In this document: positions 30,714 to 53,756 of the stretch, piece by piece
How positions within the stretch are numbered: position 1 is the first letter of the stretch
How the letters are laid out: every line of letters starts with the position of its first letter
Assembly (NCBI GenBank): GCA_043823745.1
Contig: JBDRAN010000059.1
Span: 9,105 to 73,104 of the forward strand
Direction of reading: 5' to 3'
DNA length: 64,000 nt
From: Candidatus Omnitrophota bacterium
GTDB taxonomy: Bacteria > Omnitrophota > Gorgyraeia > Duberdicusellales > 4484-171
Notes under the pieces: model-generated
Told to the model about the DNA's origin: nothing
Database searches by the model: none
The model's input: the letters and a program-made list of their open reading frames with translations, nothing else
Made by a program: the position numbers and the translations under genes

Positions 30714-30762
30714 CGGGGCCGCTGCGATTGGGGTCCTGCCGCGCGTGCGCACGAGAAACAAT

Positions 30763-38049: not shown

Positions 38050-38412
38050 ATGTTGATAGCAAAGACAAAGAAGGAAAAGCGTAAAAGTCAAAGGCTCTCT
38101 ATTTGTTTTCCGGTAAAGTACAAACTCAAGCAACATACCCCCCTTAGAAACGCAATTGTCTGCCGTGACATTAGCGGCCATGGCGTAAGCATTCTTGCGC
38201 ACGAAGTATTAAAGACAAATCATAAACTTAATGTAATGCTCTACCCGAAGGGGAGTTGTAAGCCCATAGATGCGTTGTGTAAAGTAGTCTGGTGCAGGCA
38301 AAGCTATAAGGGTGCATTTGAGGCAGGCCTTGAATTCTTAAAAATTAAACAGGAACAACAATTCATAGATTTTCTTTGCAGTAATCTTATTGAATCGTCG
38401 CTTAAAAAGTGA
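38050..38412 (+). CDS. PilZ-domain protein (c-di-GMP-binding)
   Basis: RxxxR-like KRKSQRL and D-x-S-x-x-G (CRDISGHGVSI) motifs. Confidence 0.6.
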   Translation: MLIAKTKKEKRKSQRLSICFPVKYKLKQHTPLRNAIVCRDISGHGVSILAHEVLKTNHKLNVMLYPKGSCKPIDALCKVVWCRQSYKGAFEAGLEFLKIKQEQQFIDFLCSNLIESSLKK

Positions 38413-38511
38413 AGCTCCGTCGCCTTATGACGGTGGTTAGGGCTTACATCCATGGAACGAAACCCTGAGCCATGCGTGGTTTATGGGTAAATACAACGGA
38501 GGGATGCGTGT

Positions 38512-38913
38512 ATGCGTAAGAAGTCTTACAAAGAAAAGAGGAAAGCGCAACGTCTCAACCTTTCTTTACCCTTCGAATATCACTCTGCACGAGGCAAGAA
38601 GGTCTCTTCGAAAAGAATATGTACGAGAGATATAAGTGGTTCAGGAATAGGGTTTCGTCTCGCTCACCCCGTAGCCGTGAGGGCGCGTTTAGGGATATTA
38701 TTATATTTTCCTACTGATAAGCGGCCTATATCGTCAGTGGCCGAGGTTGTACGGTGCACCAAACGTGTGATTAAGGGAAAACCTTTGTATGATGTAGGGG
38801 TAAAGCATCTTAAGATTGCCGCCAAAGACAGAGAGAGGTTTGTTTTTTCTTTCTGTGAAACGATGATAAATCATTTCGTGTTGCCCGTGGGGGTAGCAGT
38901 TGATGAAAAATGA
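38512..38913 (+). CDS. PilZ-domain protein (second paralogue)
   Basis: KRKAQRLNL and TRDISGSGIGF motifs. Confidence 0.6.
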   Translation: MRKKSYKEKRKAQRLNLSLPFEYHSARGKKVSSKRICTRDISGSGIGFRLAHPVAVRARLGILLYFPTDKRPISSVAEVVRCTKRVIKGKPLYDVGVKHLKIAAKDRERFVFSFCETMINHFVLPVGVAVDEK

Positions 38914-39295
38914 TCCGGTAAAGAAAATTCTTATTGTCGACGATGAAACAGAAACCCGCCGACTTATCGCTGCGTATCTGGCGAGACGAAAAAAGTATGA
39001 GACGCATGAAGTAGGGAGCGGTATCGAAGCCTTAGAGGTTCTCAATACAATTAAGCCAGACCTGATTATTCTCGACGTAATAATGCCTTGTATGGATGGT
39101 TTCCAGCTTTTAAAAAAACTCAAAGAAGAGCCAAAGTATTTCACTATACCGGTGATTATGTTGACCGTTAAAAGTTCTTCTAAATGTCTTGACGCGGGGA
39201 TTTCTTTGGGGGCAGATTTCTACCTGCCCAAGCCGTTTCAGCTTTCTAACCTTATGAAATTTATCAATTTGGTGTTAGATAATGGCGTCCAATAA
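38900..39295 (+). CDS. Single-domain response regulator (CheY-like receiver)
   Basis: ILIVDDE, phospho-acceptor Asp in LIILDVIMP, and conserved T and K positions (MLTVKSS...YLPKPF). Confidence 0.8.
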   Translation: MMKNDPVKKILIVDDETETRRLIAAYLARRKKYETHEVGSGIEALEVLNTIKPDLIILDVIMPCMDGFQLLKKLKEEPKYFTIPVIMLTVKSSSKCLDAGISLGADFYLPKPFQLSNLMKFINLVLDNGVQ

Positions 39296-40085
39296 GGTTA
39301 TTTATCGCGTTGCACGTACGAGAGATGAACTTGAAGGGGTCTACGCACTTGTTTACAAAGAGTACCTGCGGCGCGGTTATATCCCCAAAGGCTACAGCAA
39401 TAACTTACGTCTTTCCCTCTATAACGCTCTTCCCGATACAACTACTTTTATTGCGAAACAACAACGTACGCTGGCAGCGACGGTGACGCTGGTCCCCGAT
39501 TCAAAGCTGGGCATTCTCATGGATAAACTCTATAAAAATGAAGTTGATGTCCTGCGTAGTCAGGGTCGCCGCGTTGCGGAAGTCTCACAGCTTGCTATTA
39601 ACAGCGCATTTTTTCCACAAGGATTATTTTCGATGTTTAATTTCAACAAATTAATTTTTCTTTTCAAACTTTTTAGACAGGTGCTTGATTATGCATTTTT
39701 CGTCGAAAAACTGACTGATCTGTGCATTGCGTTTAATCCTCGGCACCAGCATCTGTATCGCTTTCTGCAATTTGAACAAATAGGAGGGCTTAAATATTAC
39801 GGAGCGTTTCACTCTCCGGCTATCGCCATGCATCTCGATCTTACAAGAGTCCAGGAAAAAGCAAAAAAGCGCAAAGGTCTCTACAAAATATTTTTTTCGG
39901 GAAAACCCGATCTATCAGCTTTTAAAGGAAAATATCACATAACGCCGGAGGACCTGGAATATTTTTTTATAAAGAAATCAGATATTTTTAAAAAAGCATC
40001 AAAGGTAGAGCTAGGCGCTCTTAAGTGCTATTATCCGCCGGATGCGTTTTCAGCGCTTATCAAAAAAATAAGCGCGCGGCCTTAA
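39282..40085 (+). CDS. FeeM/OlsB/LuxI-fold N-acyltransferase-like protein (acyl-CoA N-acyltransferase superfamily, N-acyl amino acid synthase-like)
   Basis: R-x-x-E-V-S-Q-L-A-I motif (RVAEVSQLAIN), resembling the E-x-S-R-L-A-V core of the LuxI/FeeM/OlsB fold; ~267 aa. Confidence 0.5.
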   Translation: MASNKVIYRVARTRDELEGVYALVYKEYLRRGYIPKGYSNNLRLSLYNALPDTTTFIAKQQRTLAATVTLVPDSKLGILMDKLYKNEVDVLRSQGRRVAEVSQLAINSAFFPQGLFSMFNFNKLIFLFKLFRQVLDYAFFVEKLTDLCIAFNPRHQHLYRFLQFEQIGGLKYYGAFHSPAIAMHLDLTRVQEKAKKRKGLYKIFFSGKPDLSAFKGKYHITPEDLEYFFIKKSDIFKKASKVELGALKCYYPPDAFSALIKKISARP

Positions 40086-40100
40086 GGGGGAGGAAATTTT

Positions 40101-40358
40101 ATGCAGCGCTGTAAAAAATGTATAATGCCTTCAAATTATCCCGGTATATCATTCAACGAAAAAGGCATTTGTAATTTTTGCGCAGCACAGATGTCTCCGG
40201 ATGTTGCGAAAGACGCACAAGAAGCATTCTATAATGATTTCCGGAATACCGTGAATAATGCGCGCGGAAAGGGAAGAGAATATGACTGTTTAATTTCCTT
40301 AAGCGGCGGCAAGGATAACGTGTGCCGAGCATATTTGGGAATAAGGAGTATAAGGTAA
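40101..40358 (+). pseudogene. Remnant of an N-acetyl-sugar amidotransferase-type PP-loop ATP-pyrophosphatase (WbuX/LPS-biosynthesis family): N-terminal zinc ribbon plus the start of the PP-loop only
   Basis: CKKC...CNFC zinc ribbon followed by LISLSGGKDN (an SGGxDS PP-loop variant). The ORF stops ~20 aa later at 85 aa, whereas full-length family members are ~370 aa. Confidence 0.45.
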
Positions 40359-40470
40359 AGTCCCGACTCTTAGGATAGCGAGTGGTTAGAAGGGCCGCGG
40401 CGATGGCAATAAGAGTGCTAGTTTTTTATGAATGGCGTCATTGGCATGCAACGCGCGCAAATAGCAAGGG

Positions 40471-42207
40471 GTGATTTTGGCAAAAGGGATATTGATTAGT
40501 TACGCGGGTTACCCTTACACTCCCTCCAGTCTTCTACCAGATAATGGGTTAGCTAATTTGGCAGGTGCCCTTATTCAGAACGGTCATGAGGTGTTGGTGC
40601 TCGATTATGGAACCGTGGATGTGGTTAAAAGATTGGTGCCAACAGATATCGGCATTGCCTTGAAGGATATATATAACAAGGCCAAGAAAATAAAAGAGAA
40701 AAAAGGTTCTTCCGCGCTCCAGAAAATGTTTCTTTTCCATACATTGCGGCACATTGATAGAGCGCTCACGAAACACCAGAACAATCAGACGTTAATGATG
40801 GCCGAAGAGCTTCTCGATTTAATAAAAGAACAAAAACCCGATTTTGTTGGTTTTAAATTATGGGTCGGAGATGGTTTTGCTGCGTCCGTGAAGATGGCGG
40901 AAATCATAAAAAGAAAGTTTCCGCACATAAAACTGTTTGGCGGCGGGCCATTGTTGGATGAAGCCGAAGAAGTAACCATGGAGGTTGCACCAGTATTTGA
41001 TGCAGTCTCCTTTGCTGAGGGTGAAGAAACTATTGTAGATTTGGCCCTGTACTGTGAGGGCAAGAAAGCCCTATCCGAGATCAGTAATCTTATTTACAAA
41101 ACGGACAAGAAGCGTATTGTTAAAACAGGAAAGAAGATAATAGACGATTTAGATAGTTTGTCCTTACCGGTGTATGACGAAGCCATATATCCTGCGATGA
41201 AAGACGGTCAGAAAATTAAGATAATATTATTAGATGAAAGCAGAGGGTGTCCGTATCGATGTTTTTTTTGCCCCCATGAGCATAAGAGTGGAGGCAAACG
41301 AAGGACTAAATCACCTCAACGGATTTTTCAAGAAATAAAACGTTTGGTCGAATCGTACGGTATCCATGCCTTTCGATATGCCGGTTCATGCACTCCCTTT
41401 GAGACTTTGAACGAGGTAGCCAACAATATTTTAAGTGATAATTTAGACGTACTGTATACTTCATACGCCAACGCAAAACTTGCCGATCTTAATAATCTTG
41501 ATCTACTGAAAAGGAGTGGTCTTCATGCTTTATTCTTTGGGATTGAAACTGGAGACGACAGAATATTGCATGAAATGATGAATAAACGAATGGTTTCTGT
41601 AGAACTGATAAAAAATAAAGTGCAGGGCGCCATTGAAAAGGGCATCTTTTGTGTCGGGAGCGTAATCTTTCCCGCACCAGGAGAAACTCCTCAGACTCGA
41701 GATAAATTATTGGGTGTGCTTAAGGAAATATATACGCATGAGGAGAGTGGCTCTGTGCAAGTTCAATTTCCGGGACTTTTTACGGGAACTGAGTGGTATA
41801 GAAACACAGCAAAATTCGGATTTAAAATAAAAAATCAGAAGACCTATAAACGGGATATGCTTAATTATAAAATAAAACTGCTTTTTCCTCCGACCTTCTG
41901 GAAACCCCTGCCGTATACTATCGATGGAAAGGGTTACAAACAGTTTGCTAAGGAAACAGAAAAGTTCGCTAATGAATTAGAAAAAAGTAATATTTTAACT
42001 CTGGTTACCGATGAAATGGCTCTTTCGGCGCGTTTACTTGGGGTAACCCCAAAACAGTATAGAGATCGTTCCCGGCTTCAACTACTGACTGGAGACTGGG
42101 AGAGTATTTCGAGAGATGTTCAGACAATAAATCGCGGTATAACGAGTGACGAGCAGTTAAGAATCAATATTCGGCATTCAAACTTCCAAGGGTCTGATAA
42201 CACATGA
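40471..42207 (+). CDS. B12-binding-domain radical SAM protein
   Basis: N-terminal B12-binding-like domain; radical SAM motif ESRGCPYRCFFCPHEH. Confidence 0.8.
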   Translation: MILAKGILISYAGYPYTPSSLLPDNGLANLAGALIQNGHEVLVLDYGTVDVVKRLVPTDIGIALKDIYNKAKKIKEKKGSSALQKMFLFHTLRHIDRALTKHQNNQTLMMAEELLDLIKEQKPDFVGFKLWVGDGFAASVKMAEIIKRKFPHIKLFGGGPLLDEAEEVTMEVAPVFDAVSFAEGEETIVDLALYCEGKKALSEISNLIYKTDKKRIVKTGKKIIDDLDSLSLPVYDEAIYPAMKDGQKIKIILLDESRGCPYRCFFCPHEHKSGGKRRTKSPQRIFQEIKRLVESYGIHAFRYAGSCTPFETLNEVANNILSDNLDVLYTSYANAKLADLNNLDLLKRSGLHALFFGIETGDDRILHEMMNKRMVSVELIKNKVQGAIEKGIFCVGSVIFPAPGETPQTRDKLLGVLKEIYTHEESGSVQVQFPGLFTGTEWYRNTAKFGFKIKNQKTYKRDMLNYKIKLLFPPTFWKPLPYTIDGKGYKQFAKETEKFANELEKSNILTLVTDEMALSARLLGVTPKQYRDRSRLQLLTGDWESISRDVQTINRGITSDEQLRINIRHSNFQGSDNT

Positions 42208-42231
42208 GGATTAAGTTCTTTCTTGTTTCTT

Positions 42232-42624
42232 TCATGGAGAAGTGTACGCCGCTTTCTTGAGTGCATCATCGACAGCTCGTTTGAGCGCATTACTGCTCAT
42301 CGTAGCGCCGCTTACCGCATCAACCTGCGTAGATTGTTCCTCAATTATTTTATCGACAAGAGGCCAAAGCATACTCGTATATCTTCGAAGAGATAGTTGT
42401 GTAATATTTTTTATAGCTTCTATCTTCCCATCTTTTATAATTACTGATACTTTCATTTGTCCGGGAAATTTAAAAGATCTGCCCTCGTACGTTCCATCCG
42501 TAAATTGTTTTTTTTGTTCAATTCCGTCCACGCAGACGGTGACATTCTTTGCGGCAAGGAAAGCAATCAGTAAGAATATGCTTACACTCAGTAAAGAAAT
42601 TTTTATTATTCTTGGCTTATTCAT
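42232..42624 (-). CDS. Secreted or membrane-anchored FMN-binding-domain protein
   Basis: N-terminal signal/anchor; FMN_bind motif VDAVSGATMSSNAL (covalent-FMN Thr/Ser site as in RnfG/NqrC). Confidence 0.6.
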   Translation of the reverse strand: MNKPRIIKISLLSVSIFLLIAFLAAKNVTVCVDGIEQKKQFTDGTYEGRSFKFPGQMKVSVIIKDGKIEAIKNITQLSLRRYTSMLWPLVDKIIEEQSTQVDAVSGATMSSNALKRAVDDALKKAAYTSP

Positions 42625-42717
42625 CGTGCCAGCACAAAACTGTTTTAACTATTAAAATCGTATGATATACTAAAAAATATCATATTTTTCTATTATAGTC
42701 AAGCTTATGCGGAACAT

Positions 42718-43989
42718 ATGCGAATTTTCTTAATAGAAGCGGAAAAAGATAAAACGCGATCCCCGACCTCAGATTGGTTCGACAGCGATACCCACAAATT
42801 TTTATGTCCTTCATTAGGCCCTATTACGCTAGCATCGTTAACTCCAAACGATATAGAGATTAAAGTTCTTGATGAGAAGATCGAGGAAATAGATTTTGAT
42901 GATTTACCCGATATTGCTGCGATTTCATTTAAGACGATGTCGAGTACGAGGGCTTATGAAATAGCGCAGATATACAGAAAAAAGAATGTAAAAGTAATAC
43001 TTGGGGGAATACATGCGTCTCTTCTGCCCGATGAGGCTAAGCAGTATTGCGATACGGTGATTATTGGTGAAGGTGAAGAAGTTTGGCCCCATGTAATAAA
43101 CGATTTACATCGTAACCAACTTTGCCCCTCGTATCATACGCCTCATTTAACTGACCTTTCAACATTGCCTATCCCCAATTTTGGATTATTACAGAACGAA
43201 CGATATATGTGCCACCCCATCCAGGCTTCCCGCGGGTGTTCCTTAAACTGCGATTTTTGCCCCACGCGAGAGATGTTCGGTGGAATTTTTCGCAAAAAGC
43301 CTATCAAGAAAATAGCGGAAGAGGTAAGAGCTGCATTGTCTATCGAGAAAAAATATATTTTTTTTACCGATGACATATTCTGTGCGGGCGATGAACGTTT
43401 TACATTGGAGCTTTTAAAAGAGATACGGAAACTAAAAATTAAGTTTTTTATTATTTCAGATTTCTTAGTGCTGAATAAAAAAATAGTTATTGAGCTTGCG
43501 CGAAGCGGGTGTTGTTATCTATGTCTCAATTTGCCCGGCACTTGCACCCGTGAAGAAATAAAAGCTATCAAGATGATGCAGATGCTCGGTATCAATGTAT
43601 GGGGGTATTTTATGTTTGGATTCCGTTTTCATGGAAAAGATGTTTTTAAGAAAGCATACGATTTTGTCCATACAACTAAGATGAGGCACGTTTCTTTTAC
43701 GGTAATGGCGCCGTATCCTAATACTACCGCCGGAAAAATCCTTGAGAGTCAAGGTAGAATTTTAACCACTGATTGGTCGCTCTACGATCAAGCACACGTA
43801 GTGTGCAAGCCAGAAAAAATGAGTAGCCAGGAGCTTACGGAAGGTTTTATGTGGATAAAAGAAAAGCTTGGATATTTGTCTTATTTTAGTTCGCAAGAGA
43901 GGATGTCGATATGGAGGACATTGACAAGTAAATGTTTGGCAGAAACATTGGGGATATTGCCGGGTAGGGAGAGTAAAAGGTGTCAATAG
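42718..43989 (+). CDS. B12-binding-domain radical SAM protein
   Basis: Radical SAM motif ASRGCSLNCDFCPT, preceded by a B12-binding-like domain. Confidence 0.75.
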   Translation: MRIFLIEAEKDKTRSPTSDWFDSDTHKFLCPSLGPITLASLTPNDIEIKVLDEKIEEIDFDDLPDIAAISFKTMSSTRAYEIAQIYRKKNVKVILGGIHASLLPDEAKQYCDTVIIGEGEEVWPHVINDLHRNQLCPSYHTPHLTDLSTLPIPNFGLLQNERYMCHPIQASRGCSLNCDFCPTREMFGGIFRKKPIKKIAEEVRAALSIEKKYIFFTDDIFCAGDERFTLELLKEIRKLKIKFFIISDFLVLNKKIVIELARSGCCYLCLNLPGTCTREEIKAIKMMQMLGINVWGYFMFGFRFHGKDVFKKAYDFVHTTKMRHVSFTVMAPYPNTTAGKILESQGRILTTDWSLYDQAHVVCKPEKMSSQELTEGFMWIKEKLGYLSYFSSQERMSIWRTLTSKCLAETLGILPGRESKRCQ

Positions 43990-44013
43990 ATTGCTTTCTA
44001 GAGAGGTGGAGAG

Positions 44014-44832
44014 GTGGATAAGGATAAATATTTTTATGATTTTTTAAATCGTTGTATCCCCCTTTTAACTAAAGAAGGCGTTGATAAACTAAGAAACTCT
44101 TCAATTGCAATTGCAGGTTGTGGAGGGGCGGGCGGAGCAGCAGCCATTACCCTGGCACGGATGGGCGTGGGAAATTTTACATTGGCCGATCCCGGCATCT
44201 TTGATGAGCCGGACATCAATCGGCAATGGGCGGCAAATATTCATAATTTGGGAAGAAATAAAACAGATGCCTATGAGGAAATGCTCCTTGATATAAATCC
44301 TCTGGTTTCGATAAAGAAATATCGAGAAGGTGTCGCCGATAATAATGTTACAGATTTTTTAGATGGTGTCGACCTTGTGATTGATTGTCTTGATATTGCG
44401 GTGAGCACCCATCTGAGGTCGACCTTGCATGAAGAAGCCAGAAAAAACGGTGCCTATAGCCTTGTTGCTCCTATATTAAGCTTTGGCGCTATATTTTGTT
44501 GTTCTGCGCCTACGGGGATGTCGATGGAAAGAATAGTAAAGATGATAGAAAAAGGGGGTACGGGAGAAAAATTTCCTAATATTTTTCGAAAGGTTTTTAT
44601 GCCGCAACATTTAGATATTATCGAGAATATGATTGCGACGCATAAGATTCCATCGGTTCCAATCTCCTCCATGATCGCAGCCGCGATGTTAGCCACAGAG
44701 AGTATTTTGATCCTGCTTGACAAAATTATTGTAGGCTCACGCAAGCCTATATGTTTGCCTAAGGTAATAATAACAGACTTTTTTAGGCTGGCTTACCACA
44801 TTGTTGATATCGATACGCTACCCTTAGAGTAA
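44014..44832 (+). CDS. ThiF/MoeB/HesA-family E1-like adenylyltransferase
   Basis: Nucleotide-binding GCGGAGGAAAITLARMGVGNFTLAD; lacks an obvious C-terminal Cys-x2-Cys pair. Confidence 0.75.
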   Translation: MDKDKYFYDFLNRCIPLLTKEGVDKLRNSSIAIAGCGGAGGAAAITLARMGVGNFTLADPGIFDEPDINRQWAANIHNLGRNKTDAYEEMLLDINPLVSIKKYREGVADNNVTDFLDGVDLVIDCLDIAVSTHLRSTLHEEARKNGAYSLVAPILSFGAIFCCSAPTGMSMERIVKMIEKGGTGEKFPNIFRKVFMPQHLDIIENMIATHKIPSVPISSMIAAAMLATESILILLDKIIVGSRKPICLPKVIITDFFRLAYHIVDIDTLPLE

Positions 44833-44872
44833 GCCAGGGTATTCATAAATCACGGGGAGCTAATACGCATAT

Positions 44873-46240
44873 ATGGAAAAAAAAATGTCCAAACATCTGC
44901 TTACGCTACACAGCTTAGGCATGATTAAGCCATTCGCTAAAATCGTTCGAAATCTTAGGGCTAAAATCATTAAAAGTGTGGGTTACAATACCAACTTAGT
45001 GCCTAATCAGCTCACGCGCATAGATATGCTTACGGACAGTCTTATGCATTTTATTTTGCCACAGAGAAACTTTTTTAATAGCAGTAGCATAGAATCTTCT
45101 TATCTTAATCTGGAAGACACTTTTAAAAGATATTTTGGATATAAGCATGTCTTACCGATTGCGCAGGGAAGGATGGCCGAGATCATTCTCGCTAAGGTTA
45201 TGGTTACCAATGGGACTGTAATACCAAGCAACATGCTTTTTGTTACTACGCGCGTGCACCAAGAGCTAAGCGGCGCGACCGTGCTTGAGATGCCTGTTAA
45301 GGAAGCTTACAAATTTGATAGTTGTTTTGCCTTTAAAGGAAATATGGATACGCAAATGCTGGAGCGTACCATCATGGAATATGGGCCTTGCTGGATCCCT
45401 TATATATATGTTGAAACTTGTGTAAACGCATCGGGCGGACATCCTGTTTCAATGGAGAATATCAAGGAAGTCAGCCGTATCGCAAAAAAATATAAAATTC
45501 CTCTTATTTTGGATGCGTGCAGAATATTAGAGAATGCGTATCTTATAAAGGAAAGAGAACAGGGTTATAGCCACCAATCCATACGTGATATCGTAAAAGA
45601 ATTTTGTTCTTTTAGCGACGGTTGCACCATGAGCGCCACTAAAGATTTTTTTGTTGAAAGCGGAGGCTTCATCGCTACAAATAATCAAGAATTATATTAT
45701 GCCGCACAAGATGTCATGTCCGTATTTGGCTATGGACTTTCCGTGAGAGCAAAGGCCATATTAAACGATGTGATGAACACGACGTTTCATAGAGAAGCAT
45801 GGGTTAAAGATCGCGTAGAAAAAGTTTATCATCTATGGAATAAGCTTAAAAATTTTGGCCTGCCCGTGGTAAATCCTTCCGGCGGCCATGCGGTTTTTCT
45901 TGACTCAAGAGATTTACATAAACTGTTACCCGCTGAATATTATCCAGAAAAGGCATTCCTGGCGCACTTATATGTAACTTCAGGGATAAGGGCAGGAGAA
46001 AACATTCTTACGCCTTATCAAAAGAAGTGTGGCACTCAGATGATTCGTTTAGCAATACCAACTCGTATGTATTCGCTGAGGCAAATTAATTATATAGCTA
46101 AGAGTTTAAGGTCTGCATGGGAGGAGAAAGGAAAACTCGGGGGATTGAAAAAAATTTCTCAGCCGCCTTCATTGAGCGGATCATTCTTTGCGAAATATGA
46201 GTTACTTTCCTCTCGAGTGGTTAATAAGGGGTGCATATGA
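44873..46240 (+). CDS. Beta-eliminating lyase family PLP enzyme (tryptophanase / tyrosine phenol-lyase-like)
   Basis: Blocks aligning to tryptophanase: IDMLTDS (IDLLTDSGT), SGGHPVSMENIKEVSRIAKKYKIPLILDACRILENAYLIK (SGGQPVSLANL...DSARFAENAYFIK), PLP-Lys region CTMSATKD (LAMSAKKD), and RLAIPTRMYS (RLTIPRATYT). Confidence 0.7.
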   Translation: MEKKMSKHLLTLHSLGMIKPFAKIVRNLRAKIIKSVGYNTNLVPNQLTRIDMLTDSLMHFILPQRNFFNSSSIESSYLNLEDTFKRYFGYKHVLPIAQGRMAEIILAKVMVTNGTVIPSNMLFVTTRVHQELSGATVLEMPVKEAYKFDSCFAFKGNMDTQMLERTIMEYGPCWIPYIYVETCVNASGGHPVSMENIKEVSRIAKKYKIPLILDACRILENAYLIKEREQGYSHQSIRDIVKEFCSFSDGCTMSATKDFFVESGGFIATNNQELYYAAQDVMSVFGYGLSVRAKAILNDVMNTTFHREAWVKDRVEKVYHLWNKLKNFGLPVVNPSGGHAVFLDSRDLHKLLPAEYYPEKAFLAHLYVTSGIRAGENILTPYQKKCGTQMIRLAIPTRMYSLRQINYIAKSLRSAWEEKGKLGGLKKISQPPSLSGSFFAKYELLSSRVVNKGCI

Positions 46241-46734: not shown

Positions 46735-49026
46735 TTATTTGATTTTAGGTTTGAAAGTAATAAGAATCCATGGGGTGATGAGAAGGTCGCAGCAGAGCGC
46801 TACAAATGTTGTTAGGGCACACAGGAAACCAAAGAGCATGGTGAGACGAAACTGCGAGAATAGTAAAACAAGATAACTGGCAATCATTACGTAGGAACTG
46901 AACATCATGGGTTCTCCCAGAAGCGAAAGCGTATGGCGCGTATTTTCGAGATAATCCGGATGTTGCGCCTGTTCTATCTTGAAACGGTTTAAAAAATGCG
47001 TCGTATCATCCATAGCAAGGCCAAGGGCTATTCCCGCCGTGAGTGCGGTTCCCACATTTAAGGTAATCCCGGCCCAACCCATAAACCCAAAGGTACATAG
47101 TGTCGGAATCACATTGGGTATCATCGTAAGCACACCTAATTTCAAAGAGCGAAAATAAATAATAGCGGCCAGAAGGAGCGTAAGGCCGACAAAGAGAAGG
47201 TCTTTTATCTGCCCCGTAGTGATAGAATTGACCATATTGGAATATATGACCGGGTATGAGGTTATTTTTATTTCAAGTGCCGGGTCCAGTCGGTCTTCGG
47301 AGAATTTTTTTATCCTGTTTACCAGCTTAATCGTCTCTACGGAGTTATGTTCTGAAATGCGGCAACGAATACGCGCCAGGCGGTAAGGGTAATCGACGAA
47401 ATCCTTTTCAACGTCGTTGCGTCGCGGCGACATAGAGTAAAGTAAAAGATACTGAGCAACCATTTCCCTTGTTTCAGGAAGCCGGTAATAGGCCTGGTCA
47501 TTATCATGCATTGCCCTGTTCATGTCTTTTAAAAAATCAACGATTGACACCGCCTTATCGACTTTCGGTTGTTGCCGCACAAACGTGGTTAGCATATCGA
47601 TTTGACGTAATACGGTTGGCTCTTTTATTGTATCGGCAATGTGCGTATCTACGGTTATTTCAAGATTAGAAACACCCGCAATATTTTTCTCTATAAAAAC
47701 AGTAGCTTGGCGTACTTCGCTGTTTTTATGGAAAAACTCAAGATGGTCAGTCTCGGCGCGTATGCGTAGAATACCCGCAATACAGAAAATTATTAAAAGC
47801 GGCAAGCCCACCCAGAACCAGCGTCTCCGGCGTTCTATGAAACGTATGATTGCGGCAATAAGAGGGGCGGCATTGATTTTTAGAACCGGTTTTTTTTGCA
47901 AATCCGGAAGTGTTTTTAGCAGTATGTGGAAACTGGGGATAAGAATCAGGGAAATGATAAATGCCAAAGTGGCCGCAATGCTGCCGAGAATTCCAAAATC
48001 AACAATAGGTTTTATGTTGTTGACCATCAACGAAGCGAATCCTATAACTGTGGTAAAGCTTGCGAAGAAACAAGGCCCGAATATCAAGATGAGTGCTTCC
48101 CGAAACGCACCCCGCCTGTCCGGGTAGGTGCGGCGGAGTTGGCGATAATAAATGTCGTGAATGTAATAAATATTTTCCAGCGCGATACAGAAAATAAGAG
48201 GAATAATGCCTATAGTCACATTGTTAAAAGTTTTGCCCATGACCGCGATGGCTCCCATTGACCAGATTAAAGAAAGGGTGATGACGAGCAGCGCAGCGAT
48301 AGTATCCCGCCAGCGCCCCATGGTAAGCCGCATCAATGCGGTTATGATTAGGTAGATGGGAATGATAAAGACAAAAAAATCCCGTTGCATGTATTCGCCG
48401 AGCGAATGGTTGATGATTGCATCTCCGGCAAGGTAAAGTTTATATTTTCTGTGGGCATTTTCTTTCAGCAGTATTGTTTTTATTTTTTTTACTACTTCAT
48501 TCGTTCGTTGTTTCTTAGGATCACTTTTGATATCCACGAGCAATGAATAGAATTTACCGTCCGCAGAGGCAAGGTCTTTTACATAAAGATAATTAGTAAT
48601 AGCATGTATGCGGATTATGTCGCTTTCCTGGCGTGACTGCGGTATTTTTTCCATCAGCGCTTTTACCTGGAACATGTCGGGGGTCGTGGTAATCAAGTTT
48701 GCCGTGGAGAGGGACTTGACGTTACGAACAAAATCAATTTCTTCTATTTTTTTACTTAAATTTTTGATGAACGTAAGGTCTTCTTTTGAGAATAATGAGC
48801 CGCCTTTAAACCCGATGACTACCGTTTCGTCCGTTTCGAAAAGTTCCTTTATTTTGTTGTAGTAGAGCATATCCGGATCGTTACGGATGACGAACGCAGA
48901 AAGTGAGGTATCAAACTCGAGATGAGCTAACGCCCAGCCGAAGAGGAGCGTAACGATAGCCAATATGAGCAGGTTCGTGCGGGGGAATCGAACAATAAGC
49001 TTTGCAATCAGGCGTATCAATGACAT
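46735..49026 (-). CDS. MMPL/RND-superfamily exporter (two 6-TM bundles with sterol-sensing-like domains and periplasmic loops; HpnN-like)
   Basis: 763 aa, 12 predicted TM helices in a 1+5 / 1+5 arrangement with large loops. Confidence 0.75.
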   Translation of the reverse strand: MSLIRLIAKLIVRFPRTNLLILAIVTLLFGWALAHLEFDTSLSAFVIRNDPDMLYYNKIKELFETDETVVIGFKGGSLFSKEDLTFIKNLSKKIEEIDFVRNVKSLSTANLITTTPDMFQVKALMEKIPQSRQESDIIRIHAITNYLYVKDLASADGKFYSLLVDIKSDPKKQRTNEVVKKIKTILLKENAHRKYKLYLAGDAIINHSLGEYMQRDFFVFIIPIYLIITALMRLTMGRWRDTIAALLVITLSLIWSMGAIAVMGKTFNNVTIGIIPLIFCIALENIYYIHDIYYRQLRRTYPDRRGAFREALILIFGPCFFASFTTVIGFASLMVNNIKPIVDFGILGSIAATLAFIISLILIPSFHILLKTLPDLQKKPVLKINAAPLIAAIIRFIERRRRWFWVGLPLLIIFCIAGILRIRAETDHLEFFHKNSEVRQATVFIEKNIAGVSNLEITVDTHIADTIKEPTVLRQIDMLTTFVRQQPKVDKAVSIVDFLKDMNRAMHDNDQAYYRLPETREMVAQYLLLYSMSPRRNDVEKDFVDYPYRLARIRCRISEHNSVETIKLVNRIKKFSEDRLDPALEIKITSYPVIYSNMVNSITTGQIKDLLFVGLTLLLAAIIYFRSLKLGVLTMIPNVIPTLCTFGFMGWAGITLNVGTALTAGIALGLAMDDTTHFLNRFKIEQAQHPDYLENTRHTLSLLGEPMMFSSYVMIASYLVLLFSQFRLTMLFGFLCALTTFVALCCDLLITPWILITFKPKIK

Positions 49027-49033
49027 GGATACA

Positions 49034-50506
49034 TTACTTTGCGTCGTTTTTTAAATACCGGAATTGATAACCGTCTTGTAGGGAAGGCGGAAGCGTATCC
49101 TTTACATCATCGTAGGTAACGCTTTTTTCCTCAATGATTTGCTGCGTTACATTCAATATATAGGGCGGTATGGCCCGCAGCACGATGGCAATTTTCCATA
49201 GGTATGCTTTACAAGACATATATTTACGCATACGTAGATAATTGAGCGGCGAGATGCTTTTGAGCCACAACAGAACATATTCAAAATAAAAGCGCCACTT
49301 AGGAAGTGTGGTTTTGCAAACCATATATTCTAGATTAAAGAAACCGTAGTTATATATGCTTAATTGTTTTTTCTCCTTCATCTCTTTAAAAAGTATCGTT
49401 CCGGGCGTGGGGGTGAGCGGCACGAAATAGGGTTGTGCGATTTTGTATTTTTTAATAAATGCCCAAAGTTCTCTGAATTCCTTTTGCTTGAAATGTGGGA
49501 AAATGATGAAGTGGGCGAAGCATTCGATGCCCAGCTGATTTAAAATTTCTATCGCTTTTACGTTGTTTTCCAATGTCGTGCGTTTATTAAGTCCGTCAAG
49601 CCCCGCATTGTTGACCACTTCAAAGCCCACGACAAGGCAATAAAGACCTATTTTTCTCCAGCGTTGGAAAACTTCCGGGTGTTCGACGATAGTGTCGGTG
49701 CGGGCGTACGCGCCGTATTGTTTTTTTACCCCGCGTTTTTCCAGGGCGTCAGCCATCTTCATCGCGTGTATATGATCGTGAAAGGTATTATCGTCGGCGA
49801 TATAAACGCGGCGTTGCGGTAATTGGGCGATATCATCGGTAACATCTTGAATATCGCGCAGTCGATAGGTACCCCGTGCAGTAAACCAGAGAGAGCAGAA
49901 AGTGCAGCGGTGAGGGCATCCGTGTGTCGTAATGGTGATGCCGGCGTGAAAGTGTCTGCGATATCGCGCGGCGAGCGTCCTGTCTAAGACAGGCCAGCGG
50001 AACGTCCCGGAAACAAGGGCGCGCTCTTCTGTGAAGATGAATTTATTTCCTTTGCGGATGGCCAGTCCTTTAACCTGTTCTAGCGGGGTATTGTCCCGTA
50101 AGGCTTTGACGACTTCAGGGAATGTTTCTTCTCCGGGGCCTATACAAATAAGATCAAAACAAGGTTGGTTAAAATCATCAGGGAGCAGCGTGGGGTGCTG
50201 GCCGCCGATGATAGTGATTACCTCCGGTATGATGCATTTTGCTTCTTCGAGCATCCTGCGCGTAGTAAAGATTTCTCCTGATGTGTGTATACGCGCCGCG
50301 ATTAAGTCCGGCTTAAATTGTTTAAGTACTTTCTGCCAGGACCGCGGACTTTCGTAGCGTCGGTCAAATATTTTCACCTCAGCAAAATCTTTTACCAGTG
50401 AGCCAAGTAAAATTGCAACGAGAGGCTCATAAAAAGGCAGAAAAGGAACAAAAGACCTATGAAAATTGGGATAGGTGACGAGGACGCGCGGTTTTGTTGT
50501 CATCAA
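49034..50506 (-). CDS. B12-binding-domain radical SAM protein
   Basis: Radical SAM motif TTHGCPHRCTFCSLW; N-terminal B12-binding-like domain. Transcribed in the same direction as the MMPL gene and directly upstream of it. Confidence 0.75.
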   Translation of the reverse strand: MMTTKPRVLVTYPNFHRSFVPFLPFYEPLVAILLGSLVKDFAEVKIFDRRYESPRSWQKVLKQFKPDLIAARIHTSGEIFTTRRMLEEAKCIIPEVITIIGGQHPTLLPDDFNQPCFDLICIGPGEETFPEVVKALRDNTPLEQVKGLAIRKGNKFIFTEERALVSGTFRWPVLDRTLAARYRRHFHAGITITTHGCPHRCTFCSLWFTARGTYRLRDIQDVTDDIAQLPQRRVYIADDNTFHDHIHAMKMADALEKRGVKKQYGAYARTDTIVEHPEVFQRWRKIGLYCLVVGFEVVNNAGLDGLNKRTTLENNVKAIEILNQLGIECFAHFIIFPHFKQKEFRELWAFIKKYKIAQPYFVPLTPTPGTILFKEMKEKKQLSIYNYGFFNLEYMVCKTTLPKWRFYFEYVLLWLKSISPLNYLRMRKYMSCKAYLWKIAIVLRAIPPYILNVTQQIIEEKSVTYDDVKDTLPPSLQDGYQFRYLKNDAK

Positions 50507-50514
50507 GCTTCTCT

Positions 50515-51987
50515 TTAAAAAGAGTATTTTGCTTTTACAAAAAACTGGTCATTTTTATTGTACTGACCAAAGGTAGTATCAGGGGGTCCGAAGAAGTTAT
50601 CGTAACCTACAGCCATGGTGAGTGCGTCAGTGAGTGCATATTCGCATTTAAGTTCCCAGTAACGATCAAGGTTATATAGGTACAGCCGGCCTGTTGCTTC
50701 AAGGAGCAAGGTATCATGAATAAATTTCCTTGAGACTTTATAAATAAGACTATCCTCGTATCGGCGCGAGGTCATTCCTGCTTCATGGTCTGGAATGTAT
50801 TGCATATAATATTGAACGTTTACATAGACTCTATTTTTAAAAGTATAATCGCCCCCCACGATGCCGACAAAAGCATCCTTTTTAACCGTTCCGTCAGTTC
50901 TCTCGGGAGAATCGCTTACGAAACGGTCCCCCCACGTATACGCGAATTCCCCTCGTACACCGGCTTTTCCCAGGAGCGTTTCAAAATCAGAACCAATCGT
51001 ATGCTCGCGATGGTAACGCTGGGATACTTCATAGTTTGGCGCAAAGAAAGGAGGAGAGCCTATACTGACGAGATCGCGGTGTAGAGACGGTAATTCATCG
51101 TAATGGTAGGCATAGCTTAAGGAGAGGTCATAATCCTGCGTTGTTTTGCTCACTTTAAGCGCTCCTACTTGGCTGTGCAGGTTTTGTGCCGGCCGTGAAG
51201 GTGTATCAACAGGGATCTCGTTGAGATGATACTGGCGTAACAGATACGGTTCCCAGTCAGAGCCTGTTTCCGGAATACGGCTTGCTTCGAAAAAAGGAAG
51301 CCATATGACCTCGACATTAAACGGCTCAAATGCGTAATCAAGTTTTGTCATCCAGACGGGAAGTTTGCGTTCCGCCCGCGTTAAATTCAGATATTCGGTC
51401 CAGTCCTCAGGCGTAAAATTATCGGTTGGGTTTAGCTCATCCGATTTTCCCCAGCGTATAACTTGTCTTCCTAGGCGCAGGTTAAGGTTGCTCGTGGCAT
51501 AATTAAGGTAGCATTCCCAAAGTTTAAAGCGCTTTTCTTCATCACTCGTGTGCTTCGCGCTGCTATGTACCAGGTCGTATTGCCCATCAAGCGAGAGAAA
51601 TGATGAGAAACGTTCGGAGAACCATTGCGATGATTCAAGGCGCAAATCCTGACGTAGCTCATAGGCATGCTCTGTTGTAGTATCTTTTTTTCTGTCGAAG
51701 TAATTACGGTTTTGGTAGTAGCCGTGGATGTTTACTCGTTCCCAGAAGGTTTTTTCTTCTGCGGTGGATTTTTTATCGACCGCGGCGGTTGTAGCGGGAA
51801 GTGTTTCTTTTTCCTTTGGTGCCGACGCGTCAGTTTTTTTTACAAGTTGTGTATTTTTTTCACATTCATCGAGCATCTGGTGTATTATTTTTACTTTTGG
51901 CTGCACGATTTTCTCAGCACCGAAAGAGTTTCCATGTGTTGAAACGATAATGGCACCGATAAGGAGAAAATTTTTTTTACCCATCAA
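50515..51987 (-). CDS. Outer-membrane beta-barrel protein (DUF1302-like partner of MMPL exporters)
   Basis: Signal peptide; alternating amphipathic beta-strand pattern; C-terminal aromatic residue (…KAKYSF). Confidence 0.45.
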   Translation of the reverse strand: MMGKKNFLLIGAIIVSTHGNSFGAEKIVQPKVKIIHQMLDECEKNTQLVKKTDASAPKEKETLPATTAAVDKKSTAEEKTFWERVNIHGYYQNRNYFDRKKDTTTEHAYELRQDLRLESSQWFSERFSSFLSLDGQYDLVHSSAKHTSDEEKRFKLWECYLNYATSNLNLRLGRQVIRWGKSDELNPTDNFTPEDWTEYLNLTRAERKLPVWMTKLDYAFEPFNVEVIWLPFFEASRIPETGSDWEPYLLRQYHLNEIPVDTPSRPAQNLHSQVGALKVSKTTQDYDLSLSYAYHYDELPSLHRDLVSIGSPPFFAPNYEVSQRYHREHTIGSDFETLLGKAGVRGEFAYTWGDRFVSDSPERTDGTVKKDAFVGIVGGDYTFKNRVYVNVQYYMQYIPDHEAGMTSRRYEDSLIYKVSRKFIHDTLLLEATGRLYLYNLDRYWELKCEYALTDALTMAVGYDNFFGPPDTTFGQYNKNDQFFVKAKYSF

Positions 51988-52829
51988 TTAAAATTTTCTA
52001 ACGCTGCTGTTTGTAAATTAAGCTGTTCAAAAAGCTCATCCGAAAGGCCGGAATTATAAACAACGTTTGTTGTAACAATCTCTGTTTTATGGCCGTCCAT
52101 CAGGCTTTCCATAGAGACATAGCGCGGCGTCCAGATGCCGTCTATTTGCTCTATGTTTTTGGCCCTGCCTATTTTAACCAGGTGCCCCTTTTTATCGAAA
52201 TATTCAACGTGTATACGGATAAAACTTTCTTTGTCCGTCCAGGTGCGCATGCGGCTATAGACGGTATTGGCGCCGGGTTTTGCCGTTGCTTCGTAAAAAT
52301 AGCATTCTTTTCCTTCACGCATATCGTCACCTGCCGCGGAGTAAGTGTAATTATCGACTTTTAAATTTTCGAGGTCCTCGTAGTTGAAATCGGTTCCGAC
52401 AAAAGTTTGTTCTTTATCGTTTGTGGCGATGCGCCGTATTTTCTTTAATGCCGGAAGGTACAGAAACTGTGTATCGTCGGCTCCGGTATTTTCCCACGTG
52501 AGCAGTCCCGTCTGGCGGATGTCGGCGGGGGAAAGAAAGCGGATCATAATTTTCCGCAGCCCCCCCCTGTCTTTCATGTAGCGATACGCAGAACGTTTGC
52601 GGGCATATCCGGTTTTGTTGGTAAGCAGCATGTCCCACCGCCAGACTTGGTCGTCTCCGGCGTACTGGTTTTTTACACTCAATTGGATTTCGCGGCCATC
52701 TCTTATCTCTGCGGTTGCACCGGAAGCGCCAATACACAGATACCCGGCGATGAAGATAGCAAATAAGAAACTCATTTTTTTTATTAGGTCCGACATTTTA
52801 TCACATGCTTCAAGCGGTATCCCGCACAT
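51984..52829 (-). CDS. LolA-like outer-membrane lipoprotein-sorting / lipid-carrier protein
   Basis: Signal peptide with a lipobox-like region (IAGYLCIGASG); ~280 aa. The context (MMPL exporter plus OMP) is typical for this family. Confidence 0.45.
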   Translation of the reverse strand: MCGIPLEACDKMSDLIKKMSFLFAIFIAGYLCIGASGATAEIRDGREIQLSVKNQYAGDDQVWRWDMLLTNKTGYARKRSAYRYMKDRGGLRKIMIRFLSPADIRQTGLLTWENTGADDTQFLYLPALKKIRRIATNDKEQTFVGTDFNYEDLENLKVDNYTYSAAGDDMREGKECYFYEATAKPGANTVYSRMRTWTDKESFIRIHVEYFDKKGHLVKIGRAKNIEQIDGIWTPRYVSMESLMDGHKTEIVTTNVVYNSGLSDELFEQLNLQTAALENFN

Positions 52830-52920
52830 TTAATGTTACGTACATTATAATATATCGTGAAGAGAATGTAATTTTTAAAAACTACTTAAATCCTTACGTA
52901 TAGGATTCAAGAGATACGCT

Positions 52921-53601
52921 TTATTGGTTTAATTCGGTTATTCGCCGCACCAGTTCCTCGGTTGTATTTGCGAGCAGCGTTTCGTCTATTTTTTCTTGAT
53001 GCATTGCTTCAAACGAAAATGGTTTTCCTACGGTTAAGGTTATGGTGTGTGCGGTGTGTAATTCGAATGAGTGAGGCGAAAGGACATTGCCCGCTCCGTG
53101 TATATTGACGGGAACGATCGTAACTCCGGTTGAGAGCGCGATGGCTGCAGTGCCTGTTCCGGGTTTTTTGTTTTGTGGGTGTTTTTTCGAATACCATCGC
53201 GCCGCGCCTTCCGGAAAAATGACTATCCAACAACCTTCGCTTAATGCTTTCTTGACTTTTTCGACGGTTCCATTCACCACGATTACCGGGTATAATGCGT
53301 AGAACCATTTTAAATACCATATTCTATAGTTTTCTTTAGAAATGACCCACAGTACATTGGCCAGATTGCTATAAAAGGCGGTCCCGATCAGAAGTACATC
53401 CAGGTAGCTCGAATGATTTGATACGATAAGCGCGCTGGAGGTATCCGGGATATTTTCAAGCCCTTTAAATACAATTTTAAAATTTGCCTTTACGAAAAAT
53501 TTGGTGATAGGAAATGCCCATGCGCGTAGGTATACTCTTTTGCGGTTAAGAAATAATACAAAATTTTTTAAATAAAGCAGGATTTTTTTCATTTGGAACA
53601 A
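52921..53601 (-). CDS. Lysophospholipid / 1-acyl-sn-glycerol-3-phosphate acyltransferase family protein (PlsC/OlsA-like)
   Basis: H-x4-D motif NHSSYLD and the second-block motif FPEGAARW. Confidence 0.75.
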   Translation of the reverse strand: MFQMKKILLYLKNFVLFLNRKRVYLRAWAFPITKFFVKANFKIVFKGLENIPDTSSALIVSNHSSYLDVLLIGTAFYSNLANVLWVISKENYRIWYLKWFYALYPVIVVNGTVEKVKKALSEGCWIVIFPEGAARWYSKKHPQNKKPGTGTAAIALSTGVTIVPVNIHGAGNVLSPHSFELHTAHTITLTVGKPFSFEAMHQEKIDETLLANTTEELVRRITELNQ

Positions 53602-53756
53602 AAATTTGCTATATAAGAATTATAGCAGGTAACGATAGCCTTTACAATAATGGTATATTATTTTTTGCAGTATTTTTAATTAAAAATTGTAGTATAATCA
53701 ATACTAAATCAATTGTTTTTATTGACAATTGCTAAATATATAGTATTTTAGGGAAG

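Follow-up and report, generated by a model that had tools for sequence, protein, structure and literature searches.

Positions 38050-53601 of a 64,000-nt stretch of DNA of an uncultivated Candidatus Omnitrophota bacterium (assembly GCA_043823745.1, contig JBDRAN010000059.1; the whole stretch is hereafter called the window) hold a 15.5-kb gene cluster that combines a FeeM-family synthase of N-acyl amino acids (NAS) with a ThiF-type adenylyltransferase, three B12-binding radical SAM enzymes (rSAM1-3), a pyridoxal phosphate (PLP)-dependent lyase, envelope genes, and candidate regulators (Table 1). All the components named in a preliminary description of this DNA, made from the sequence alone, were found here in the list of open reading frames (ORFs) and by Pfam and NCBIfam scans. 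The same description held that no known pathway could be assigned to the set, and this proved wrong: FeeM with ThiF constitutes the core of the OxzAB/TyzABC/TrzAS pathway, and sister loci hold its third enzyme. The biochemical core is thus already known, and it is the radical-SAM version of it that is previously undescribed.

Table 1. Features of the cluster, with the matches and motifs supporting each assignment
Feature	Coordinates	Strand	Matches and motifs
PilZ protein 1, 120 aa	38050-38412	+	PF07238 48.4 bits; RxxxR = RKSQR, DxSxxG = DISGHG; putative c-di-GMP receptor
PilZ protein 2, 133 aa	38512-38913	+	PF07238 39.1 bits; motifs RKAQR, DISGSG; putative c-di-GMP receptor
Stand-alone response-regulator receiver, 131 aa	38900-39295	+	PF00072 94.9 bits; acidic pocket DD, phospho-acceptor D58, T, K
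FeeM-family N-acyl amino acid synthase	39282-40085	+	PF21926 129.9 bits
Truncated WbuX-like PP-loop ORF, 85 aa	40101-40358	+	TIGR03573 residues 1-77/344; zinc ribbon and SGGKD only
B12-binding radical SAM enzyme 1 (rSAM1), 578 aa	40471-42207	+	PF02310 and PF04055; CPYRCFFC
FMN_bind protein, 130 aa	42232-42624	-	PF04205 46.4 bits; N-terminal transmembrane segment, SGAT motif
B12-binding radical SAM enzyme 2 (rSAM2), 423 aa	42718-43989	+	PF02310 and PF04055; CSLNCDFC
ThiF-type adenylyltransferase, clade 1	44014-44832	+	PF00899 108.7 bits; nucleotide-binding motifs GxGGxG, NRQ, DCLD
PLP beta-eliminating lyase, divergent tyrosine phenol-lyase (TPL)/TnaA subfamily	44873-46240	+	PF01212 152.6 bits; NF009709 343.9 bits
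ThiF pseudogene (second ThiF, clade 2; C-terminal half only)	46268-46687	+	tblastn to the second ThiF (ThiF2) of locus L052
MMPL/HAE3-type RND inner-membrane transporter, 763 aa	46735-49026	-	PF03176 81.9 bits; TIGR00921 174 bits, under the cut-off
B12-binding radical SAM enzyme 3 (rSAM3), 490 aa	49034-50506	-	PF02310 and PF04055; CPHRCTFC
DUF1302 protein, putative outer-membrane beta-barrel	50515-51987	-	PF06980 64.4 bits; signal peptide
LolA_like/DUF1329 periplasmic carrier-type protein	51984-52829	-	PF17131 191.9 bits; PF07044 47 bits; hydrophobic N-terminal signal
PlsC-type (lysophospholipid-type) acyltransferase	52921-53601	-	PF01553 80.1 bits; HX4D (NHSSYLD), FPEG

The FMN_bind gene sits on the minus strand between the plus-strand genes of rSAM1 and rSAM2. 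The DUF1302, LolA-like and MMPL genes form one co-directional minus-strand run, with rSAM3 between MMPL and DUF1302. The locus is rather likely to consist of a pair of convergent operons dedicated to a tailored lipid of the N-acyl amino acid type.

The synthase matches FeeM of the Protein Data Bank (PDB entry 2G0B) at E=4e-19. In a Foldseek search with its AlphaFold2 model (pLDDT 89) the top match is also FeeM (TM 0.82), ahead of acyl-homoserine lactone synthases and generic GNATs. Residue E100 falls in the RVAEVSQLAI stretch, which aligns with PDB FeeM; it does not vary among 25 homologues and, by its position rather than by residue-by-residue comparison, would be the counterpart of the catalytic glutamate of FeeM/Nas354, the role of which was demonstrated by mutagenesis in Nas354 (PMC4897644). 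PF21926 is the sole Pfam match of the protein at E <= 0.01, with no match to the OlsB-type PF13444. Sequence and model together thus identify the window synthase as a genuine FeeM relative and not a generic GNAT. The profile suggested in the preliminary description, TIGR03694 (PEP-CTERM/exosortase-associated synthase; cut-off 111.95 bits), gave no match at E <= 0.001, and was rejected as the family of this synthase; a FeeM homologue from Geoalkalibacter matches it at 138.8 bits. A clade-specific C-terminal helical extension (approximately residues 190-265, encoded by 39849-40085), modelled with high confidence and absent from the 198-aa FeeM crystal structure, carries nearly invariant DLxYFF and KSD motifs; it might offer the separate PilZ proteins a surface to dock on.

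FeeM-fold synthases acting with a ThiF-like enzyme and a flavin oxidase of the nitroreductase superfamily constitute a characterised pathway (PMC10404671, PMC12856293, PMC12479983, PMC12596934, bioRxiv 10.1101/2020.06.11.147165), whose members are OxzAB of Pseudoalteromonas rubra, TyzABC of Mycobacterium tuberculosis, TrzAS of mycolic-acid bacteria, and the stieleriacine clusters. There the synthase puts an acyl group on the amino nitrogen of tyrosine, phenylalanine or tryptophan, ThiF cyclises the product to an oxazolone with ATP, and the flavin oxidase desaturates it with O2, yielding N-acyl-(dehydro)tyrosine or tryptophan oxazolones. The three domains also occur in one NCBIfam protein, PRK14852 (989 aa), with FeeM at the N-terminus, ThiF in the middle and nitroreductase at the C-terminus, while PRK14851 is comprised of ThiF and nitroreductase.

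Like TyzABC, the window combines a FeeM-fold synthase with a stand-alone ThiF-type ATP-dependent enzyme, and both clusters adjoin or contain an MMPL gene (tyzABC adjoins mmpL9 in M. tuberculosis; PMC10404671). Unlike TyzABC, it has no counterpart of TyzC, the O2-dependent nitroreductase-family desaturase, and its ThiF scores under the PRK08223 cut-off; it has, in addition, the three B12-rSAMs, the TPL-like lyase, PlsC, the LolA-like and DUF1302 proteins, and the PilZ and receiver (REC) regulators. OxzAB (P. rubra) and TrzAS (M. tuberculosis, Rhodococcus), comprised of a synthase and a ThiF-nitroreductase fusion, share with the window the logic of NAS plus ThiF (bioRxiv 10.1101/2020.06.11.147165; PMC12856293), whereas a nitroreductase domain is missing from the window altogether and its ThiF belongs to a separate clade paired with a PLP lyase. 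The clusters for stieleriacines, thalassotalic acid and kyonggic acid, each with NasY, a methyltransferase, ThiF and a nitroreductase, make N-acyl tyrosine-type lipids with methylation (PMC12479983). Their methyltransferases are of class I, whereas tailoring in the window would use cobalamin radical SAM enzymes, and the window has a dedicated export module and putative PilZ control. Full-text literature searches revealed no paper joining NAS and ThiF clusters with radical SAM enzymes, and none linking such clusters to DUF1302/DUF1329 export genes or to Omnitrophota; the OxzAB preprint (bioRxiv 10.1101/2020.06.11.147165) mentions neither transporters nor anaerobes. Acyl-oxazolones and N-acyl dehydrotyrosines have been linked to genes only in 2020-2025, and aerobes, which use an oxygen-dependent flavin oxidase, are their only sources known so far.

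For comparative analysis, we collected loci anchored on the FeeM-like protein, 45 from species-representative genomes and at least six from metagenomes, plus those from exact-protein look-ups, and mapped the window proteins and extra queries onto them by tblastn, which gave 57 non-redundant loci (numbers with L below denote the compared loci). The species-representative genome set lacked the closest relatives of the window, and lyase-bearing loci came via the protein look-ups. The carriers belong to Omnitrophota, Elusimicrobia, several lineages of Desulfobacterota, Methylomirabilota, Binatia and Aminicenantes. FeeM is accompanied by ThiF in 18 loci, by export genes in 22, and by both in 13; ThiF and export genes are each present in 17 of the loci that span 12 kb or more (31 in all). 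This grouping of FeeM, ThiF and export genes exceeds chance, as the neighbours are conserved across phyla and some of the genes are fused. A nitroreductase is present in 7 of the 57 loci and a B12-rSAM in 11, and in none do they occur together. A nitroreductase hidden elsewhere in the window was considered and rejected, since tblastn with three such proteins as queries found none in its 64 kb; the same queries match L031, L033, L038, L046, L047, L049 and L051.

The link to the known pathway is best seen in L049 and L051, whose FeeM orthologues are 55-59% identical to the window protein, and which both have canonical ThiF and nitroreductase genes together with the same export genes. L049 (Omnitrophota) encodes PlsC, REC, two PilZ proteins, FeeM, DUF1302, a MacB-type ABC transporter with FtsX, a LolA-like protein, and the methyltransferase-nitroreductase-ThiF trio of the stieleriacine type. 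L051 (an Elusimicrobia bin) encodes DAHP synthase, prephenate dehydrogenase, an AMP-binding enzyme, PlsC, FeeM, MMPL, LolA-like, DUF1302, ThiF and nitroreductase. ThiF-nitroreductase fusions occur together with export genes in L033 and L038 (Desulfobacterota), while of two cultured carriers of the NAS-ThiF-oxidase triad, Geoalkalibacter halelectricus has no export genes in view and Desulfothermus okinawensis has a LolA-like gene and a partial DUF1302 match. The radical-SAM version, as in the window, recurs in Omnitrophota (L007, L008, L052, L053, L054, L063) and in a complete Aminicenantes genome (L062), where genes for a KAS III-KR, enoyl-CoA hydratase and phenol-type O-methyltransferase are additionally present. 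Tandem FeeM paralogues, two per locus, were observed in L014, L016-L018, L020, L026, L027, L029, L031, L033, L040, L043, L057 and L059 (Desulfobacterota, Binatia and related); they recall the multiple nasY genes of Stieleria, as stieleriacine-type clusters also have several NAS paralogues.

A link of the synthase to cyclic di-GMP (c-di-GMP) is suggested by the canonical motifs of the PilZ proteins, whose Pfam scores exceed the cut-off, and by four further lines of evidence. Twelve loci have a pair of PilZ genes immediately upstream of FeeM. In L054, a homologue of window PilZ protein 2 is fused to FeeM at the N-terminus. In L052 and L053, PAS-GAF-GGDEF and PAS-GGDEF-HD-GYP genes are directly upstream of the PilZ pair; the nearest GGDEF gene of the window encodes a GAF-GGDEF diguanylate cyclase (61116-62291, minus strand), 7.5 kb from the cluster end. 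Finally, Nas343 and Nas354 are metagenomic NAS-PilZ fusions, expression of nas354 in E. coli gave N-acyltyrosine, and these enzymes provide a precedent for c-di-GMP control of the class (PMC4897644). In them PilZ is C-terminal and fused, whereas the window has two separate PilZ proteins and a receiver, and the PilZ domain of L054 is N-terminal; moreover, the published nas genes are described as lying outside a biosynthetic operon (PMC4897644), unlike the window synthase. The receiver is conserved beside FeeM in L002, L004, L010, L049, L052 and L063.

Based on these data, we estimate at roughly 0.6 the probability that the locus makes and exports a tailored N-acyl amino acid lipid under c-di-GMP/phosphorelay gating, as a radical-SAM version of the acyl-oxazolone pathway. 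The FeeM-like synthase would move a fatty acyl group from acyl carrier protein (ACP) or coenzyme A onto the amino group of an amino acid. By analogy, the head group is probably aromatic, as it is in the characterised relatives, and as the genes for DAHP synthase and prephenate dehydrogenase adjoin the L051 homologue. In that locus these two genes and the one for the AMP-binding (acyl-activating) enzyme (191-3427) lie immediately upstream of PlsC-FeeM, which hints at a tyrosine head group and an acyl chain activated on site. The ThiF-type enzyme, by analogy with TyzB, OxzB and TrzS, would then adenylate the free carboxylate, and the acyl-amino acid would cyclise to a 5(4H)-oxazolone or be captured by another nucleophile. 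The three B12-rSAMs would tailor the product in place of the flavin oxidase, by C-methylation, C-C chemistry or oxygen-independent oxidation. With low confidence, the TPL/TnaA-like enzyme might supply or remodel the free amino acid, or give sulfide or ammonia by beta-elimination; the PlsC-type enzyme would add a second acyl group. MMPL would pull the lipid out of the inner membrane; on the LolA-like protein it would cross the periplasm, to be inserted into the outer membrane or conducted through it by DUF1302. Gating of synthesis by the receiver and both PilZ proteins would be post-translational, probably through binding to the synthase. An N-acyl amino acid-type lipid, envelope export and c-di-GMP input had all been anticipated in the preliminary description, and comparative evidence (synteny, constancy of LolA-like and DUF1302 genes, PilZ pairs, the fusion, and GGDEF neighbours) now supports them.

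Several points weigh against this scheme. The window has no flavin oxidase, which as the third enzyme defines the known pathway. The window ThiF is 26-32% identical to the nitroreductase-linked ThiFs, so that cyclase activity is an extrapolation. Saturated oxazolones are reactive. Given this, and as oxazolones were not found for products of the stieleriacine type (PMC12479983), the ThiF reaction may have another purpose. The lyase lacks those residues which would link it with tyrosine or tryptophan, and thus does not fix the head group. The direction of transport is also affected, since the growth defect of Pseudomonas putida DUF1302/DUF1329 mutants on fatty esters has also been read as uptake or hydrolysis (bioRxiv 10.1101/2020.07.04.188060). 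Lastly, the compared loci are phylogenetically related, and the co-occurrence counts given above overstate their independence.

The preliminary description had recognised in the N-acyltransferase and PlsC the logic of OlsB/OlsA, which would make the product an ornithine-lipid-like bulk outer-membrane aminolipid, with FeeM in the role of OlsB, PlsC in that of OlsA, and ThiF, the lyase and the rSAMs decorating it. The resemblance is in the pairing of an N-acyltransferase with a PlsC-type O-acyltransferase and in an amino-acid-containing membrane lipid. PlsC with an intact HX4D motif adjoins the FeeM module in the window, L008, L011, L049 and L051 and weakly matches OlsF (21.9 bits), and export by a Lol-like or MMPL route suits a structural membrane lipid. 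Still, this reading is unlikely and the OlsB/OlsA analogy weak, as the synthase belongs to PF21926 and falls outside PF13444, the OlsB family, while PlsC is confined to Omnitrophota and Elusimicrobia loci and pairs with FeeM in a part of the clade only. It is missing from Desulfobacterota, Aminicenantes and some Omnitrophota loci that keep FeeM, ThiF and the exporter, and the pairing does not hold in L053 and L054 either; ThiF is bound to FeeM more tightly, via fusions. Besides, ornithine-lipid synthesis by OlsB/OlsA has no ThiF, rSAM or lyase step and requires no carboxylate activation.

The ThiF proteins of the compared loci fall into three clades: the nitroreductase-linked one, clade 2 (L008, L063 and the second ThiF of L052), and clade 1 with the window protein. 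The best NCBIfam match of the latter is PRK08223, at 169.6 bits against a cut-off of 266, compared to 316-391 bits for nitroreductase-linked ThiFs (L047, L051, L049). Directly downstream of the clade-1 gene lies the lyase gene in every clade-1 locus (the window, L052, L053, L054, L061) except the Aminicenantes one. The lyase scores above the cut-off of subfamily NF009709 (343.9 vs 285 bits) and far lower than the equivalogs TPL (324.6 vs 720.7) and TnaA (244.8 vs 825.8). It retains the PLP-binding Lys257 and D214, R217, R404, N185 and R100, which bind PLP, phosphate and carboxylate. On the contrary, in all four lyase orthologues TPL Tyr71 is replaced by Ser and Lys256 by Thr or Ser, Thr124 is variable, and the Arg381 loop is deleted. 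In TPL, Tyr71 is the general acid for aromatic C-C cleavage, dispensable for substrates with good leaving groups. Identification as a true tyrosine phenol-lyase or tryptophanase was therefore rejected, equivalog scores being too low and the residues Tyr71, Lys256 and the Arg381 loop gone. The earlier assignment to the tryptophanase family stands at the level of the subfamily, but not as a tryptophanase proper. Judging from the retained residues, beta-elimination or beta-replacement with good leaving groups is plausible.

The order of these genes appears to have changed. The remnant downstream of the lyase, between it and MMPL, is 38% identical to residues 155-296 of the L052 ThiF2 (E=2e-18) and contains several in-frame stops, and the intact ThiF2 gene of L052 is at the matching position. 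The ancestral order was thus probably ThiF1-lyase-ThiF2, with the first pair kept in the window and the second ThiF in L008 and L063, which have FeeM, the rSAMs and the exporter with a clade-2 ThiF and without the lyase. In a Myxococcota metagenome-assembled genome (MAG; L061, 10001-14234), a clade-1 ThiF-lyase pair occurs without FeeM, beside a haem-oxygenase-like protein, an ACP and a ketosynthase; clade-1 ThiF and lyase are hence a portable two-gene module. A 241-aa protein upstream of the L061 ThiF was tried as a FeeM-like candidate and rejected, having no BLASTP or Pfam match. In the same cluster, the pair is followed by a full-length 370-aa WbuX-like PP-loop protein, 28% identical to the 85-aa remnant of the window. 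The description of the latter as a decayed amidotransferase was fair, since less than a quarter of the WbuX model is covered, and the ORF is kept at 78% identity in L002, the closest relative.

These observations can also be read as insertion of sulfur or nitrogen by ThiF and the lyase, where a cysteine or serine beta-lyase would release sulfide or ammonia to attack the acyl-adenylate, giving an N-acyl amino thioacid, a thiazolone or an amide. Retention of the PLP and carboxylate binders with loss of Tyr71, Lys256 and the Arg381 loop would suit such an enzyme. The strict adjacency of clade-1 ThiF and lyase in five loci, including the Myxococcota cluster without FeeM, agrees with it, as does the WbuX-like PP-loop ATPase that accompanies the pair in L061 and of which the window retains a remnant; an adenylate that is then attacked by sulfide is the classical logic of ThiF/MoeB. 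We consider it quite unlikely, however, as no sulfur-carrier protein with a C-terminal GG was seen, L008 and L063 do without the lyase, which is thus not essential to the system, and a TPL-like enzyme has no biochemical precedent in such a role.

The MMPL protein is 70% identical to its L008 orthologue. In L049, L017, L018, L023, L033, L011 and L057 it is replaced by a MacB-type ABC transporter with FtsX, whereas the LolA-like and DUF1302 genes stay constant. DUF1302, a putative outer-membrane beta-barrel, is found with FeeM in loci of Omnitrophota, Desulfobacterota and Aminicenantes, and the LolA-like gene adjoins it in at least ten loci. By analogy, a constant carrier and barrel with a swappable pump is the pattern to be expected of a Lol-like lipid route to an outer-membrane barrel. 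A module of DUF1302, DUF1329 and RND proteins (with a BNR protein) is known in Pseudomonas from fitness data, and export of an envelope component has been proposed for it (bioRxiv 10.1101/2020.07.04.188060; 10.1101/072470). The window encodes all three together; unlike in Pseudomonas, the module is embedded in a biosynthetic cluster, a MacB-type ABC transporter can stand in for its pump, and no BNR-repeat partner was seen. This embedding suggests a cargo for the module.

The same proteins might instead import or process external lipids or esters, as an uptake or catabolic system for hydrophobic compounds, with the lyase and the electron-transfer flavoprotein (ETF) involved in degradation. In P. 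putida, DUF1302/DUF1329 mutants are impaired on fatty esters and co-fit with the RND pump and the BNR protein (bioRxiv 10.1101/2020.07.04.188060), and ETF genes adjoin the window locus. But RND/MMPL pumps are exporters, the ETF genes are not kept beside related loci, and the conserved partners are biosynthetic (the N-acyltransferase, ThiF, methyltransferases, and KAS III-KR in L062). Uptake and catabolism are accordingly improbable, and export of the N-acyl amino acid lipid is the direction assumed here.

The CxxxCxxC motif is present in all three rSAMs, and none of them belongs to a well-known family. The best NCBIfam matches of rSAM1 include ApyD (111 bits), HpnJ (101.7 bits vs a cut-off of 578) and TIGR03975, all far under cut-offs, and that of rSAM2 is TIGR04013 (75.7 bits vs 251). 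rSAM3 is BchE/HpnR-like (HpnR 179.5 vs 650 bits, BchE 141.3 vs 481 bits). Orthology to HpnR, HpnP, HpnJ or BchE was therefore rejected. None of the three findings named in the preliminary description as refuting it, lack of synteny, a generic GNAT and rSAMs of well-known families, was made. Orthologues of all three are found in L007, L008, L053, L062 and L063; in addition, L052 has those of rSAM1 and rSAM2, and L054 those of rSAM2 and rSAM3. The rSAM2 orthologues, with 58-75% identity, are all metagenomic or Omnitrophota proteins without names, and in close Omnitrophota relatives the gene directly follows FeeM. As nitroreductases and B12-rSAMs exclude each other among the loci, the swap of the nitroreductase for three rSAMs suggests either that the same chemistry has been solved anaerobically or that the product family is new. 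An anaerobic replacement of the O2-dependent oxidase by the rSAMs is a tentative proposal. A complete route without oxygen, by cobalamin/radical-SAM chemistry, to lipids of the acyl-oxazolone type or to their thio- or amido-analogues, the latter made with the ThiF-lyase pair, is a little more doubtful still.

Two further redox proteins were observed in these loci. The SGAT motif of the FMN_bind protein is presumably the usual covalent-flavinylation motif of this domain. A homologue directly adjoins MMPL in L063 (13724-14089, minus strand), and because of this recurrence in a second radical-SAM-type locus the protein is probably an accessory extracytoplasmic redox component and not a random insertion. 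A flavoprotein of approximately 535 aa with the FAD_binding_4 domain adjoins FeeM homologues in 11 loci (L024, L028, L030, L032, L036, L037, L039, L040, L041, L051, L054), in most of them accompanied by a 220-aa protein with a weak DUF2878 match only. If it is of the VAO/PCMH type, it might serve as a third alternative oxidase, with a p-hydroxybenzyl head group as its substrate.

ThiF and B12-rSAMs could also modify a peptide made on ribosomes and altered after translation (RiPP), N-acylated by the FeeM-like enzyme to a lipopeptide. Most characterised ThiF-like enzymes of secondary metabolism work on peptides (PMC12596934), and ApyD and TIGR03975, among the best matches of rSAM1, are RiPP enzymes. 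This is very improbable, given that all the rSAM scores are far under the family cut-offs, and that the FeeM orthologues belong to canonical small-molecule NAS/ThiF/nitroreductase triads. Nor was a conserved short precursor ORF noticed in the gaps of the window or among the called genes of related loci, where no dedicated small-ORF comparison was made. Chance juxtaposition in one MAG, or an assembly artefact, is scarcely credible even for a metagenome-assembled sequence, being refuted by synteny: the same gene set recurs in largely the same order in independent assemblies from different samples and phyla, and gene fusions join its parts.

The favoured interpretation, a radical-SAM version of the acyl-oxazolone pathway, ties the synthase-ThiF core to a full envelope export route and to putative c-di-GMP receptors in several phyla, in many typically anaerobic lineages. 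The export and c-di-GMP wiring points to a surface or outer-membrane function linked to the biofilm/motility switch. If confirmed, the oxygen-independent route would add a new pair to the classic replacements of oxygen-dependent enzymes by radical SAM ones, give DUF1302/DUF1329 a function, and place a lipid among the outputs of c-di-GMP signalling. The locus offers a concrete, testable cargo for the DUF1302/DUF1329/RND module. It also bears on the role and export of acyl-oxazolones elsewhere, including M. tuberculosis, where mmpL9 is the neighbour of tyzABC.

Housekeeping genes flank the locus, those of PEPCK and purC on its upstream side and those of EtfB/EtfA and SMC on its downstream side. 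ETF and PEPCK/purC were considered as parts of the locus and rejected, as they are not kept beside related loci. The G+C content is 0.40-0.45 in 38000-54000 and 0.46-0.49 in the adjacent housekeeping genes, i.e., 4-8 points lower in the cluster, which may reflect horizontal acquisition; no tRNA genes were found in the window, and no integrase was seen there either. Rfam yielded no c-di-GMP or cobalamin riboswitch across the window at gathering scores or in 37300-38150 at E <= 1. Neither the promoter scan (41 hits vs 37.8 in shuffled sequence) nor the terminator scan (24 vs 19.2) rose above expectation, and the only, weak, hints are a convergent terminator-like pair in 46268-46569 and a match to -10/-35 elements immediately upstream of PlsC.

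Outside the cluster, a 1674-aa SMC protein (55925-60949, plus strand) has an intein with a LAGLIDADG homing-endonuclease domain near its N-terminal P-loop (Intein_splicing 95 bits, LAGLIDADG_3 44 bits, SMC_N 211 bits). A fourth B12-binding radical SAM gene (9981-11438, plus strand), followed by an amidohydrolase gene (11591-12523), is remote from the cluster and distantly related to rSAM1-3. One more gene (30745-31953, plus strand) encodes a protein with a metallo-beta-lactamase/ODP domain and a flavodoxin domain. This architecture is, we assume, that of flavodiiron O2/NO-detoxifying proteins, typical of anaerobes, and the protein fits an oxygen-sensitive host dependent on radical SAM chemistry.

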